This document shows, one piece after another, positions 1-5,033 of a stretch of DNA of 5,033 nucleotides; position 1 is the stretch's first letter, and the number at the start of each line of letters is the position of its first letter. Origin of the DNA: a virus. Taxonomy: Duplodnaviria; Heunggongvirae; Uroviricota; Caudoviricetes. The translations under genes and the position numbers were made by a program. The notes beneath the pieces were generated by a model that was not told the origin of the DNA, made no database searches, and saw nothing but the letters and a program-made list of their open reading frames with translations. The stretch is taken from IMG/VR virus record IMGVR_UViG_2698536647_000008, one strand, 5' to 3'.

Positions 1-432
1 TTAATTAAAGTCAATTCCTGACAAGTCTAATCCGAGTGAGCAGTTCAAAATTTTATCCATTGCATTACTGGATAATACTACCTTTAGCTTTGCAACTTTT
101 GCAGGTGAATCCAAGGTACTATTCTTAGTTATTAGTGTATAAAAATCAGAAACTGGTATACTTTCAATTGTATGATCATACCCTTTATATGCAGCATAAT
201 TGAATACAGTGTCACCATTCATATCGTAAGCATGTGATTCAAGATCAATAAAAAATTTATCAGAACTAGTTATTGCAACTGGCTTACCATCTTTATAGAT
301 TTTAACAGTACCTGCATGGCCCGATGCATTAATATTAACAGTGTACTTTTGCTCACAGGAATATGTTACAGATTTTGCCATAGTAGAAAAAGAAAGCAGC
401 ATAACAATACAAGGTACAAGAACCTTTATCAT
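1..432 (-). CDS. Hypothetical secreted (periplasmic) protein, 143 aa, with N-terminal Sec-type signal peptide
   Basis: Complete ORF: ATG at 432..430, TAA at 3..1. N-terminus MIKVLVPCIVMLLSFSTMA-KS has a hydrophobic core and an AXA-like cleavage motif; no C-terminal TM segment. GGAG sits 7 nt upstream of the ATG (minus-strand reading TAA-ACCTATTGGAGTACTTAC-ATG). Last gene of the minus-strand operon, 18 nt after the holin-like gene. No family recognised from memory. Confidence 0.55.
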   Translation of the reverse strand: MIKVLVPCIVMLLSFSTMAKSVTYSCEQKYTVNINASGHAGTVKIYKDGKPVAITSSDKFFIDLESHAYDMNGDTVFNYAAYKGYDHTIESIPVSDFYTLITKNSTLDSPAKVAKLKVVLSSNAMDKILNCSLGLDLSGIDFN

Positions 433-450
433 GTAAGTACTCCAATAGGT

Positions 451-741
451 TTAGCTCCCACCAATCAAGATTATCAGTACTTTCCATATTTCATCAAGTG
501 GAACAATGGGGAGTACCACACCACATAAGGCCAGTACTGGCACAATGACGTAGTTCCATAGAATGATGAACGTCAGTACCCATCCTAAGCCCTGTCGCCA
601 AGTGAAGCCCTTACGCGTTTCTTCAAGTGTGATCTGGTTCTGTTCATGGCTGTTCTGTGCGTCCAGCTCTTGCTTACTTTGTTCTTTCTTCTGGAAGAAA
701 CCTACTCCAGTTTTGATTAAATCAATTATCATTCCAATCAT
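451..741 (-). CDS. Putative phage holin, 3-TM type (resembles the 'holin of 3 TMs' family, PF11351-like)
   Basis: 96 aa. Hydrophilic N-terminal ~45 aa, then hydrophobic segments. The motifs TWRQGLGWV, LPIVPLDEIW and a C-terminal ILIGG match, from memory, the conserved WRPFxGWV / LPxLxxxEL / LLGLGG pattern of that holin family. ATG at 741..739 overlaps the upstream TGA (740..738) as ATGA. Family assignment is by recall, not by alignment. Confidence 0.6.
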   Translation of the reverse strand: MIGMIIDLIKTGVGFFQKKEQSKQELDAQNSHEQNQITLEETRKGFTWRQGLGWVLTFIILWNYVIVPVLALCGVVLPIVPLDEIWKVLIILIGGS

Positions 742-1049
742 TCAATGATCCCCACGCAATACACCCAAAAGTGTTTTCCCTTAACGAATAGTTTTTTATG
801 TTCGATTACGTACACATCCATCTGGTCACCTTGTAGTGACCATGTAAGTACTGAACCGTCCGTTATATTTTGTTTTTTCTCATAGCAAACATTCATAAAA
901 TGCTCGATATTAATCTGTTTACTCTTTAGTACCTTCTTGAACTTATTACCAAGAAAGCATTTATGAATTGGCATACTATTAGCCTCTGGTGTATTACCAT
1001 CGAGTTTAATCTCACTGGTTAGTTCACCATAATGTTCATCAAAATTCAT
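738..1049 (-). CDS. Hypothetical protein, 103 aa
   Basis: ORF with ATG at 1049..1047 overlapping the stop of the upstream gene (ATGA, 1049..1046), and its own stop overlapping the holin start. Called on coupling and operon context only; no motif recognised. Confidence 0.5.
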   Translation of the reverse strand: MNFDEHYGELTSEIKLDGNTPEANSMPIHKCFLGNKFKKVLKSKQINIEHFMNVCYEKKQNITDGSVLTWSLQGDQMDVYVIEHKKLFVKGKHFWVYCVGIIE

Positions 1050-1606
1050 CTTGTTACCTTGAATGTTCCCTGTATACCACTCATGACTAACATCACACCA
1101 TTATTCACTTCCTGATAGAAATCATAAATTAGTTTACGGCGTTTACTTTCCCGTAGGCCGATTACACGCTTTTGTTTTTTCTTTTGAGTAGTATCTATTA
1201 ATCGTTCTTTTCCGTTTTTACCTTTGACTATCTTGTAACGACCAGAGGCCAAATTTTTCTTTAGTCCACTAATGTTACCCTGCTTCGTTAGTCTTGCTTT
1301 CGAAGTAGGCACAAATTTATCAATGGCCTTTTGTTCAACCAGTACACCATATAAGTACTGTGCCTGAACATCTTTGACCATGATTGTAGCTGTGACCCCA
1401 CTACCCCGTTTTTTATAAAAGAATAGAATTGATCGTTGAGTGAAAGGTACTGCACCTTTGTCTACGGCATTGTTCATATCTGCCTGTACTTTCATAGATA
1501 ATACTCTTGAACGCTTAATAATTTCATCTTGGAACTGTTTACCTAACTTCGTTCCTGTTGTTTTTATATAGTTCGTGACATTATCTATACCCGTTATTCT
1601 TGTCAT
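1046..1606 (-). CDS. Hypothetical basic (Lys/Arg-rich) protein, 186 aa
   Basis: ATG at 1606..1604, 4 nt after the upstream TAA (1613..1611), with GAGGT about 6 nt upstream overlapping that stop. Very basic C-terminal half (KGKNGKERLIDTTQKKKQKRVIGLRESKRRK), which may mean nucleic-acid binding. No family recognised. Confidence 0.55.
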   Translation of the reverse strand: MTRITGIDNVTNYIKTTGTKLGKQFQDEIIKRSRVLSMKVQADMNNAVDKGAVPFTQRSILFFYKKRGSGVTATIMVKDVQAQYLYGVLVEQKAIDKFVPTSKARLTKQGNISGLKKNLASGRYKIVKGKNGKERLIDTTQKKKQKRVIGLRESKRRKLIYDFYQEVNNGVMLVMSGIQGTFKVTR

Positions 1607-1610
1607 ATAT

Positions 1611-2060
1611 TTACCTCACACCCAATAAATCAGTTAAATATTGCAGTACTTTAAATAAATCCAAACGGTTTTTTGGTAATCGTGCCTTACACATTATTGC
1701 CTTATTTAAACAGTCGGGATGTAAACCAAAGTAGCTAATCAATGCTGTTTCTAAAATCGTTGCCTCTGCGTCAGATTTAACACAGTACAAAATCTTTTTA
1801 GTGTATGGCATTCCGGCTTCAATCATTTCATTAACGCACTTACTACTACCGGTATAATCAGGCCAGTTCGATTCAACTGAAGTAGACTTTAAATTCTTTA
1901 TGTCGCGTACTTTTTTATAGATTTGCTTCTTACCGAAATAGTACTCGCCAGTCTCTGGAAACTGAATAATGTAGATAAACGAAACGTAATTCCCATCTGT
2001 TACTTCTGACATATTCCACATATTAATATCGAACATCTCCCATGCTTTATTAACTCTCAC
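1611..2060 (-). CDS. Hypothetical protein, 149 aa; possible degenerate GIY-YIG nuclease-like domain (speculative)
   Basis: First gene of the minus-strand operon. The ORF begins with GTG at 2060..2058, with AGGGA about 8 nt upstream; the first in-frame ATG (2036..2034) has no spacer to a GGGAG. Segment SFIYIIQFPETGEYYFGKK shows an IY...(about 10 aa)...YxFG spacing reminiscent of GIY-(10)-YIG, followed by Arg and Glu at roughly expected distances. The nuclease call is weak. Confidence 0.5.
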   Translation of the reverse strand: MRVNKAWEMFDINMWNMSEVTDGNYVSFIYIIQFPETGEYYFGKKQIYKKVRDIKNLKSTSVESNWPDYTGSSKCVNEMIEAGMPYTKKILYCVKSDAEATILETALISYFGLHPDCLNKAIMCKARLPKNRLDLFKVLQYLTDLLGVR

Positions 2061-2588: not shown

Positions 2589-2855
2589 TTATTGTTTCTG
2601 TTCAAGAATGGTAATGATTTTTTCAATTTTCACATCCAGATCATGGATCTGGTTTTCAAGTTTAGTTAAAGCATCACGCATCTTATTCTGATCAGCTTCA
2701 ATACGCACCATACTACTTTCCTGTACTGCTTGTTTAGTTTCCAGTTCTGAAACACGTGTAAGTAGTCCATCAGTATCTTTTGTATTGTCGCGGAATACAG
2801 TGTACAGAAGTACACAGCCAGAAATAATAAGAGCTAATATTGTACCAATGTCCAT
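2589..2855 (-). CDS. Small membrane-anchored coiled-coil protein, 88 aa (i-spanin-like architecture; function unknown)
   Basis: ATG at 2855..2853, TAA at 2591..2589. One N-terminal hydrophobic segment (IGTILALIISGCVLLYTVF), then a charged, heptad-like region (ELETKQAVQESSMVRIEADQNKMRDALTKLENQIHDLDVKIEKII). No lipoprotein partner was found embedded in the one alternative frame I translated by hand. Confidence 0.5.
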   Translation of the reverse strand: MDIGTILALIISGCVLLYTVFRDNTKDTDGLLTRVSELETKQAVQESSMVRIEADQNKMRDALTKLENQIHDLDVKIEKIITILEQKQ

Positions 2856-2895: not shown

Positions 2896-3552
2896 TTAAT
2901 ATCCGGTGAAAGTAGCTAAAGCGATTTGAAAACCATTGTTGCCCATTGCCTGACGATATGTTTTCTGGTTCTTTGAAACGTACTGCAAGCTGAATGAAGT
3001 ACTGCTATTACGTCGAATAACTATTCCCGAATAACCGATTGTTTCACCATCATCACTTAAGTTGCCCGGACATTGTGACCAACAAAACCAGGGATTAGCA
3101 ACAGGGCTTGTTACTGTGATTGCAGTACTCAAATCCGTAGCAGCAGGTACAGTTAAGAAACCTTGTATACGGGGCATGGTAGCCGCCGATGCAGCAGACC
3201 ATATCAAAGTACCGGAAGCATTGAACACATCGAGATAACCAGACGTAGGTGTTGCAGTGTGCGTACTCGTCATGAATCGCCCTATCCCCGGCTGGAACAA
3301 CTCAGCACCGGGAAAACACCAGCCACCATCTTTCTGTATCTGAAACCAGTACTGCGTAGTGTTCCTGTTCACGATAGTTGCAAGTGGCAAGAAGCCAAGA
3401 GCACCACCATTACCAAAAGCACACGTAAAGCCAGTGTAATACCCCTGATCCGTCAGTGTACCCATTGCCTTAACAGCACCTGTGAGAATTGACTTGTTAG
3501 TACTGTCAATCGTCAGAGCACCCGCAGAATTATAAACTTCAAAACCTGACAT
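2896..3552 (-). CDS. Hypothetical tail-fibre-associated protein, about 218 aa
   Basis: The tracked ORF (2896..3597) begins with TTG and would overlap the upstream gene by 44 nt. I prefer the ATG at 3552..3550, which lies 1 nt after the upstream TAA (3556..3554; minus strand reads TAATATG) and gives MSGFEVYNSAGALTID... Its N-terminus resembles that of the preceding 98-aa ORF, with a further internal copy (DVFNASGTLIW). Located directly downstream of the tail-fibre gene. Confidence 0.5.
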   Translation of the reverse strand: MSGFEVYNSAGALTIDSTNKSILTGAVKAMGTLTDQGYYTGFTCAFGNGGALGFLPLATIVNRNTTQYWFQIQKDGGWCFPGAELFQPGIGRFMTSTHTATPTSGYLDVFNASGTLIWSAASAATMPRIQGFLTVPAATDLSTAITVTSPVANPWFCWSQCPGNLSDDGETIGYSGIVIRRNSSTSFSLQYVSKNQKTYRQAMGNNGFQIALATFTGY

Positions 3553-3553
3553 A

Positions 3554-3850
3554 TTACACCGTCCACTTATATACGTTGAAACTATACGTACCAGCAAACG
3601 GTGATCCCGTTGGTAGATAAATGATAGTCATTGAACCATTATTACAAATAACAGACCACTCATTAAAAACATCCGTAGATGGTGCGTAATAGGCAATCCA
3701 CCCTGTTGTTTTCATTCCGGGCACAGTGACGGTATAACTTGATGCAGTAGTAGCAGTAATTGAGTAAGTACCCATGTACCGCATATTATAATCACCGAGA
3801 TCTACTACTAATACCCCTGCACTATTCCAGCATTGTAATCCTTGTGCCAT
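3554..3850 (-). CDS. Hypothetical tail-fibre-associated protein, 98 aa
   Basis: ATG at 3850..3848 with a good RBS (AAAGGATTTAAA-ATG), TAA at 3556..3554. N-terminus GLQCWNSAGVLVVD parallels GFEVYNSAGALTID of the next gene. Thr/Ser/Tyr-rich composition is typical of beta-rich fibre or adhesin proteins. Confidence 0.5.
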   Translation of the reverse strand: MAQGLQCWNSAGVLVVDLGDYNMRYMGTYSITATTASSYTVTVPGMKTTGWIAYYAPSTDVFNEWSVICNNGSMTIIYLPTGSPFAGTYSFNVYKWTV

Positions 3851-3895: not shown

Positions 3896-4783
<888 letters not shown>

Positions 4784-4802
4784 TCAGTCAGAGGTGACTC
4801 AC

Positions 4803-5033
4803 ATGACAAAAACAGTATCAACCAGTAAAAAACCCCGTAAACAGCATTCGCCTGAATTTCGCAGTGAAGCCCTGAAGCTTGCTGAACGCATCGGTGTTAC
4901 TGCCGCAGCCCGTGAACTCAGCCTGTATGAATCACAGCTCTACAACTGGCGCAGTAAACAGCAAAATCAGCAGACGTCTTCTGAACGTGAACTGGAGATG
5001 TCTACCGAGATTGCACGTCTCAAACGCCAGCTG
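4803..5033 (+). CDS. insE: IS3 transposase OrfA (InsE), N-terminal 77 codons; truncated by the window edge
   Basis: ATG at 4803 preceded by GAGGTGA with a 5-nt spacer. Translation MTKTVSTSKKPRKQHSPEFRSEALKLAERIGVTAAARELSLYESQLYNWRSKQQNQQTSSERELEMSTEIARLKRQL matches the E. coli IS3 OrfA N-terminus as I recall it, including the helix-turn-helix region. No stop before the window ends. Confidence 0.93.
   Translation, partial: MTKTVSTSKKPRKQHSPEFRSEALKLAERIGVTAAARELSLYESQLYNWRSKQQNQQTSSERELEMSTEIARLKRQL

Follow-up and report, generated by a model that had tools for sequence, protein, structure and literature searches.

Five coupled genes of an Enterobacterales prophage are probably the composite distal end of a siphophage late gene block

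Introduction

Do the five open reading frames (ORFs) packed on the minus strand at positions 1-2060 of the tailed-phage record IMGVR_UViG_2698536647_000008 form one system? The stretch of DNA analysed here, called the window throughout, is 5,033 nucleotides long, and an earlier note made from its letters had described the five frames, named g1 to g5 below, as a translationally coupled operon. It was taken there for an unusual lysis-control cassette or for a toxin or abortive-infection module, and in either case for a candidate undescribed system. We propose instead that the block is probably the composite distal end of the late gene block (virion and lysis genes) of a siphophage, and not one system; what had been put forward as undescribed is the unusually arranged end of a late operon. 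As judged from sequence, and with a membership that is only partly demonstrable, it would combine a holin-endolysin cassette of the gene transfer agent (GTA) holin type, a tail-completion pair like lambda Z and U, and a Seg-like nuclease gene. The prophage family concerned occurs widely among Enterobacterales; its lysis genes lie interspersed with the nuclease gene and two probable tail-completion genes.

The block and its relatives

The ORF list returned the five minus-strand frames at exactly the positions first reported: g1 at 1611-2060 (GTG start, 149 aa), g2 at 1046-1606 (186 aa), g3 at 738-1049 (103 aa), g4 at 451-741 (96 aa) and g5 at 1-432 (143 aa). The spacings claimed for the junctions were likewise read from the sequence, with a 4-nt gap between g1 and g2 (TAA, ATAT, ATG, with GAGG upstream), ATGA overlaps at both g2/g3 and g3/g4, and an 18-nt gap between g4 and g5, where GGAG stands 7 nt ahead of the ATG. 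The description of a tightly coupled co-directional block is supported, and the genes would be transcribed together. The ratio of non-synonymous to synonymous substitution rates (dN/dS) against diverged homologues was 0.02-0.35 for g1 to g4, which indicates purifying selection; because of these values and of their recurrence in about 100 loci, g1 to g4 are real genes.

We investigated how the block is composed elsewhere. Loci were gathered through look-ups of exact proteins and one scan each of genomes and of viral contigs, and their ORFs were classified with iteratively built hidden Markov models (HMMs). Two further genes were followed in this census, namely the lysozyme gene that lies divergently upstream of g1 in the window and p88, a gene for an 88-aa protein beyond it. 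Among 99 loci, g2 was present in 99, g3 in 97, the lysozyme gene in 96, g4 in 95, p88 in 94 and g1 in 93, with g5 in 3. The six genes p88, lysozyme, g1, g2, g3 and g4 were found together, in any order, in about 83 of the 99 loci, all in Enterobacterales prophages, and the other loci were mostly contig-end fragments or lacked a single gene.

The six-gene cluster lies at the distal end of the late operon, after the tail-tip gene J, and its order is permuted. In arrangement A (about 55 loci, including the window) the genes read p88, inverted lysozyme, g1, g2, g3, g4. Arrangement B (about 19 loci, including those of Serratia and Pectobacterium) keeps this order with the lysozyme gene co-directional and 1-3 nt upstream of g1, and from the orientation in these relatives the divergent lysozyme gene of the window is therefore a derived inversion. 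Arrangement C (12-14 loci) reads J, g2, g3, p88, inverted lysozyme, g1, g4, with about 10 nt from J to g2, about 160 nt from g3 to p88 and an ATGA overlap of g1 with g4. In arrangement D (4 loci) the lysozyme-to-g4 block stands ahead of the fibre-accessory genes and p88. The lysozyme gene, g1 and g4 remain grouped in all four arrangements, and p88 is with them except in arrangement D. The block consists of separable sub-modules, and g2-g3 belong with the tail genes.

These permutations bear on the idea of one functional unit, which is not supported by arrangement C, where g2-g3 part from the lysozyme gene, g1 and g4 and stand directly after the tail-tip gene. A discrete five-gene system is likewise not supported, g5 having been found in only 3 of about 99 loci and sitting between g4 and the operon terminator. 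It had also been asked whether the genes co-occur outside prophage lysis contexts, and in the comparison of loci all of the roughly 100 belong to the same prophage family with tail genes adjoining. The g4 gene shares the same terminal cluster with the lysozyme gene in about 95 loci and is the last gene of the transcription unit in most relatives; at least 20 of 83 loci have an intrinsic terminator past its stop codon, in most of them at a distance of 0-4 nt.

The probable lysis genes

The gene on the plus strand at 2101-2550 codes for a GH24 (T4 e-like) soluble lysozyme, the probable endolysin, with a match to PF00959 (E 1.9e-10; 41.6 bits, the cut-off being 22.3) and a weak match to a Bartonella GTA endolysin model. 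Since it has no N-terminal hydrophobic segment, it does not belong to the signal-anchor-release (SAR) endolysins. The endolysin had been placed divergently and outside the operon; the divergence holds for the window, and the exclusion from the block does not, the gene, to which the block is functionally tied, standing in line upstream of g1 in Serratia and Pectobacterium. In one Pectobacterium assembly (L027:6190-7092, Logan DRR379837) a sense codon stands in place of the lysozyme stop codon, and lysozyme and g1 form one in-frame ORF of 300 aa; in the sister assembly L026 the two genes are separate and 3 nt apart.

The gene g4 is most likely, on its sequence and position, the holin of the phage, of the GTA three-transmembrane (3-TM) type, because a soluble lysozyme without a SAR-type N-terminus adjoins it and there is no other candidate. 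It is a divergent candidate of the GTA_holin_3TM type: 15 of 21 diverse members of its family matched PF11351 at E <= 0.5, the best at 3.7e-6, and g4 matched phrog_2024 at 4.1e-11. The hydropathy profile of g4, computed with a 19-residue window, showed a single strong stretch (residues 64-82) in a hydrophobic C-terminal half of about 45 residues, with an amphipathic N-terminus. Of the label "3-TM holin-like", the holin-like part is thus retained and the three segments are generous. The dN/dS of g4 against its homologue in locus L007 is 0.017, and the family is annotated as hypothetical everywhere.

One close likeness is with the holin-endolysin pair of the Rhodobacter capsulatus GTA (PF11351), in which a small membrane protein (about 100 aa, amphipathic at its N-terminus and hydrophobic over its C-terminal half) is also encoded with a muramidase. 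Here, however, three genes stand between holin and endolysin, the latter is encoded on the other strand, the carrier is not a GTA but an integrating prophage that has a serine recombinase, and the g4 of the window scores under the Pfam threshold. With the lambda S-R-Rz/Rz1 cassette the locus shares a soluble muramidase and a small membrane protein as candidate holin in the late block. It differs in lying at the end of that block, past the tail genes and not at its start, in having no detectable spanin pair or unimolecular spanin, in the interleaved g1 to g3, and in an extra membrane-tethered coiled-coil protein.

The latter is encoded by p88 (2589-2855, minus strand), whose 88 aa comprise an N-terminal TM helix (residues 3-21) and a cytoplasmic coiled coil, and which adjoins the lysozyme gene in most loci. 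It is probably an accessory lysis factor with an architecture like that of Mu gp25/DUF2730 or of XhlA. The Mu gp25 "releasin" (DUF2730) has a TM helix in the N-out orientation and, after it, a helical domain that is cytoplasmic and acidic, and it is encoded beside the endolysin (PMC9239132). The p88 protein has the same size and architecture, the same place beside an endolysin gene, weak DUF2730 matches and an hhalign probability of 41% with gp25. It is set apart by matches that are all sub-threshold, by a partner lysozyme without a SAR domain and by a phage that is not Mu-like. In the Pfam search, DUF2730 was matched by 14 and XhlA by 15 of 32 family members, all below threshold, the best DUF2730 match having an E of 0.0015 under the 24.9-bit cut-off. 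Formal membership in either family was considered and rejected, as these matches are indistinguishable from coiled-coil noise and generic coiled-coil families score comparably.

We also searched for further lysis genes. An apparently intact relative of about 35 kb, inserted in ybhA of E. coli ESBLEC_MG48, carries terminase, portal, protease-capsid fusion and tail genes and the same terminal cluster, and no further holin, endolysin or spanin is found among its annotated genes. A lipobox scan for spanins in the window, the intact relative (L012/L013), L024 and L094, which is a heuristic and not a dedicated spanin finder, gave antisense ORFs only. In the mechanism that we propose, g4 would permeabilise the inner membrane and so let the soluble GH24 lysozyme reach and degrade the cell wall, p88 would assist lysis, g2 and g3 would finish or cap the tail, g1 would be a nuclease gene lodged beside the lysozyme gene, and g5 would be a passenger. 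The unusual features of such a cassette are a holin three genes away from its endolysin, an endolysin gene inverted around a palindrome of mirrored ribosome-binding sites, tail-completion candidates past the fibre genes and spanins that are not recognisable.

The g2-g3 pair

The pair g2-g3 most likely serves to complete the virion, with g2 as a tail-completion protein like lambda Z or HK97 gp10 and g3 possibly as a barrel akin to neck, terminator or tube proteins, and both products would be incorporated into the virion. The g2 protein is basic (pI 10.5), and its predicted fold is nearest to the HK97-gp10/lambda-Z tail-completion proteins. Its homologues matched only phrog_1924 (best 6.3e-5), to which gpZ is also weakly matched. 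The g3 gene is always directly downstream of g2, and its product is predicted to be a small beta-barrel with many fold matches to phage neck, hub and tube proteins. A fold search of BFVD gave one significant match only, which is unnamed. Searches of Pfam, NCBIfam and PADLOC with g2, g3 and g5 gave no usable matches, and no PDB sequence search with sequences or profiles of g1, g2, g3 or g4 gave a significant one.

The comparison with the lambda gpZ-gpU and HK97 gp10-terminator pairs is favourable in size (186 aa for g2 against 192 aa for lambda Z), in the HK97 gp10-like predicted fold, in the weak PHROG link with gpZ, and in gene order, since Z then U, or HK97 gp10-family protein then terminator, corresponds here to g2 followed by the small beta-barrel g3. 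The pair differs in lying past the tail-tip and fibre genes, in having no significant direct sequence or profile match, and in a g3 without a specific match to a tail terminator. Indeed, g2 comes after J in all loci and not between the head-closure and tail-tube genes. At that usual place, the capsid-to-tail-tube interval of the intact relative encodes only a 99-aa protein, weakly FII-like, and an unassigned 145-aa protein, so the intact relative may lack tail-completion functions there. If g2-g3 are neck or tail-completion proteins, they help to annotate the "missing" neck genes of this lineage; if they are not virion proteins, the family is a place to seek new proteins of outer-membrane disruption or lysis control.

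In the same intact relative, two tail-tube-like proteins are encoded (L012:32958-34649 and 29609-30082). One is an ordinary major tail protein of 157 aa, the other has 563 aa and joins a tube domain at its N-terminus to a C-terminus that resembles a tail fibre, and a 940-aa "tail protein" is encoded between them. A Scandinavium orthologue of g3 is named "TCTP domain-containing protein" in UniRef. A relationship of g3 with TCTP was considered and had no support in the searches, and the label looks like an artefact of automatic annotation.

The putative nuclease gene g1

For g1, which had been left without an assignable function, a clear GIY-YIG domain was found: the protein matched PF19835 (SegE GIY-YIG) at E 4.3e-15, with 56.5 bits against a cut-off of 25, and phrog_7363, "homing endonuclease", at 3.2e-9. 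The residues Y30, Y41, G43, E104 and N119 are invariant in 28 diverse homologues, and at the position of the canonical catalytic Arg, after the YIG motif, most members have K and the protein of the window has R. The 149-aa protein consists of the SegE-like nuclease domain only, and searches of Pfam, PHROGs and NCBIfam revealed no DNA-binding or targeting domain. In the literature, at the level of titles and abstracts, we found nothing relevant on GIY-YIG genes inside lysis cassettes. With the T4 SegE-type homing endonucleases g1 shares the domain, above threshold, the free-standing position between conserved genes, and occasional loss or pseudogenisation; it differs in having the catalytic domain alone, in being near-universal in its family and in the K/R exchange. 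The gene codes either for a free-standing endonuclease of the homing type that has persisted or for an accessory nuclease of the late phase, and in both cases its product is a predicted nuclease.

A phage record found with g2 bears on this choice. A tblastn search with g2 against phage genomes gave one phage record, "Escherichia phage DCP80" (L029, GenBank PQ671644.1, 1-50000), which looks chimeric, a siphophage being joined to T4-like sequence. Its first 28 kb or so are a siphophage with the architecture of the window family, and the T4-like part has two inverted copies of rIIA and its neighbours. Since the assembly is chimeric, the Gaprivervirus classification is inapplicable to the first 28 kb, and for the same reason the notion of a T4-like myovirus carrying g2-g3 was dropped. 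In the siphophage part the slot before g2 is occupied by an endonuclease VII gene (PF02945, 5.7e-14) unrelated to g1, which is followed by a 57-aa g4-like ORF, the g2 and g3 homologues, a secreted protein on the opposite strand and an endolysin. Two unrelated nucleases in one slot fit either a hotspot for homing endonucleases or a real need for a late nuclease.

A possibility that we hold tentatively is that g1, instead of being a selfish homing endonuclease, is a functional late nuclease needed by the phage, for example in DNA resolution or trimming for packaging or in breaking down host DNA when the cell lyses. Its wide retention, with invariant Y, YxG, E and N and a dN/dS of 0.13-0.29, speaks for a function, as do the want of a targeting domain such as homing enzymes have, the endonuclease VII at the same slot in the DCP80 siphophage contig, and the start/stop coupling of g1 to g4 in arrangement C. 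However, L046 and L054 have no g1 and in L088 the gene is split, and in all three loci the other five genes are intact ORFs. Moreover, the identity of g1 to the window copy does not follow that of its neighbours, a mosaic pattern expected of an independently moving gene. The unrelated nuclease at the slot also fits an insertion hotspot for homing endonucleases, and the canonical catalytic Arg is K or R.

One lysis system or a composite end

Several points weigh against the reading of the block as a composite late end. For g2, the fold match is moderate, none of 49 homologues matched PF04883, PF06763 or phrog_27 (HK97-gp10_like, Minor_tail_Z), and hhalign comparison of the family with single lambda gpZ and HK97 gp10-family sequences was not significant, single-sequence targets making this a weak test. 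The barrel fold of g3 is generic, PilZ and flavin-reductase domains being matched as well, and virion-completion genes past the tail fibre and inside a lysis cluster are in an unusual position. The g4 of the window reached PF11351 with 16.5 bits only, below the cut-off of 24.8 (E 0.013). The occurrence of g1 in 93 of 99 loci is unlike the sporadic spread expected of a purely selfish homing endonuclease. As no spanin candidate was found, outer-membrane disruption could belong to g1-g3 or to p88. Finally, the prophage family is one without a cultured member.

Another account takes p88, lysozyme and g1 to g4 for one elaborated lysis system, in which g1-g3 replace the spanins or regulate holin and endolysin. 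We regard it as unlikely. It is favoured by the grouping of all six genes at the end of the late operon in most loci and by arrangement B, where a single co-directional block stands behind the terminator that follows p88. It would also agree with the lipobox scan, which found no spanin-like lipoprotein or embedded gene, with the in-frame union of lysozyme and g1 in one Pectobacterium assembly, with the very basic character of g2, and with the DCP80 siphophage part, in which homologues of g2, g3 and the lysozyme are grouped. Against it, g2-g3 leave the lysozyme gene, g1 and g4 for the tail-tip gene in 12-14 loci, and g2 and g3 fold best with virion proteins. The g1, g2 and g3 proteins have no signal peptide or TM segment for placement in the envelope, and g1 has been lost from some loci that keep the other five genes.

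A narrower form of the idea, that at least one new lysis component is to be found among g1-g3 and p88 in a family with a holin, a soluble lysozyme and no detectable spanins, is given a small chance only; g1 with the g2/g3 pair could then provide a spanin-independent breach of the outer membrane or a control of endolysin release. A prophage-borne abortive-infection, toxin or defence module, built of a holin-like membrane effector and a nuclease, is very improbable and the block is not to be counted as a candidate of this kind: the prophage-end location where defence genes and morons accumulate, the nuclease domain and small membrane protein within the block, an OLD-type ATP-dependent nuclease among the variable genes elsewhere in the intact relative, and the resemblance of g5 and of lipoprotein genes past g4 in other loci to exclusion-type morons would suit it, but the one PADLOC match was of g1 to a generic homing-endonuclease model (E 4e-4), with none for g2-g5, lysozyme or p88, g1-g4 were never seen apart from lysozyme and tail genes in about 100 loci, they are oriented as the tail operon and in arrangement C are part of it, the phage has no other holin or endolysin by the annotation of the intact relative, and the g2 homologues are confined to this prophage lineage.

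Spacer and terminators

The divergent spacer between g1 and the lysozyme gene (2061-2100, 40 nt) is an inverted repeat of two mirrored ribosome-binding regions. A spacer of 36-42 nt between the two start codons forms a near-perfect inverted repeat in nearly all loci with an inverted lysozyme gene, each arm being made of a start codon, an AT-rich spacer and a Shine-Dalgarno sequence, and the arms vary in sequence among loci yet remain complementary. As RNA, the spacer of the window forms a hairpin (-13.5 kcal/mol) covering the Shine-Dalgarno sequence of g1. The palindrome may mark the point at which the inversion was joined, may be two promoters or leaders set back to back, or may act in the control of translation.

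The p88 and lysozyme genes converge on a hairpin terminator (2552-2586) with a 15-bp stem and a T-run on the minus strand, flanked by T residues on the complementary strand too, which probably serves both genes. In the relatives with a co-directional lysozyme gene, a terminator follows p88 and a conserved CATAAATAG motif stands ahead of the lysozyme gene; this terminator together with the CATAAATAG motif suggests that the lysozyme-to-g4 block is a transcription unit of its own. An Rfam search found no RNA families. A sigma-70 promoter scan of the window gave 13 sites against 15.5 expected from shuffled sequences, which is no enrichment. The best sigma-70-like site (1831-1858, plus strand, inside g1; TTAACG, 16 nt, TATAAT; 10 of 12 matches) faces the lysozyme gene. 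It was not counted as a conserved promoter, because it overlaps g1 codons of the invariant W..Y..SS motif and the flanking codons vary in relatives.

The g5 gene

The g5 product is predicted to be secreted, and the signal peptide claimed for it is plausible as a Sec signal, with MIK, a hydrophobic core of 16 residues and a TMA/K site. The protein is nearly an orphan, 10 cluster representatives matching it among 1.8 billion proteins. In locus L008, of the lineage of the window, a terminator with a 14-bp stem lies 15 nt past the g5 stop codon; in L010, which lacks g5, a terminator of nearly identical sequence lies 31 nt after g4. From these near-identical terminators, g5 was therefore inserted between g4 and the operon terminator, as a lineage-specific insertion (moron). 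A weak promoter-like site is found at 497-470. The region past g4 is a variable moron slot, which g5 occupies in the window.

Other cargo was seen downstream of g4 in L046, L054 and L062, on the opposite strand, for example genes for a lipoprotein of 82 aa (lipobox LTGC) and for a membrane protein of 163 aa. The few distant homologues of g5 include proteins of 851-1758 aa (P0325/P0326) that match its N-terminal part in 6-9 separate stretches, and g5 possibly corresponds to one copy of a domain that is repeated in large surface proteins.

Prophage context

Positions 1-2060 of the window are probably the distal end of the late gene block of a defective prophage of E. coli, that of a temperate siphovirus, riddled with insertion sequences (IS) and located between yeaG and mipA. 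Along the minus strand the window holds the J fragment, two fibre-accessory genes, p88, the hairpin terminator, the inverted lysozyme gene and g1 to g5. The tail-tip protein J is represented by a C-terminal fragment (3896-4753, minus strand; PF09327, E 2.1e-21) truncated by an IS3 insertion. Only its last 285 codons remain, against 1000-1350 aa for the complete J of relatives. The stretch from about 4719 to 5033 is one end of an IS3 element and shares 98% identity with IS3 copies found throughout E. coli, and in L001 there is an adjacent IS3 transposase gene. As the IS3 end truncates J, the prophage is therefore defective.

After J comes a tail-fibre accessory gene of 98 aa (3554-3850, minus strand), and a DUF8377 protein, also a tail-fibre accessory and of 218 aa in the calls of public assemblies, is encoded after J on the same strand and ends at 2896. 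The two accessory genes (2896-3850) matched phrog_7961 at 6.4e-16 and phrog_4524 at 1.8e-58, with PF28254 in public gene calls, and are present in only about 57 of the 99 loci. Just beyond the window, past g5, a strong terminator is followed by genes for a methyltransferase and a DUF2188 protein, after which comes mipA.

A nucleotide search of the whole window against 50,697 phage genomes gave only a 120-bp match, near the IS3 end, and the capsid of the family has its best match among sequenced phages at 31% identity. Genes of the g4 type are found in hundreds of genomes of E. coli, Klebsiella, Serratia and Pectobacterium, the family being widespread in Enterobacterales. Hundreds of E. coli contigs carry a gene for the g2 protein, always in a prophage remnant that extends from a serine-recombinase gene (beside yeaG) to mipA and is broken up by IS3, IS5 and other elements. 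In sister genomes, additional insertions of IS3, IS5 and ISSen4 were seen within the same prophage.

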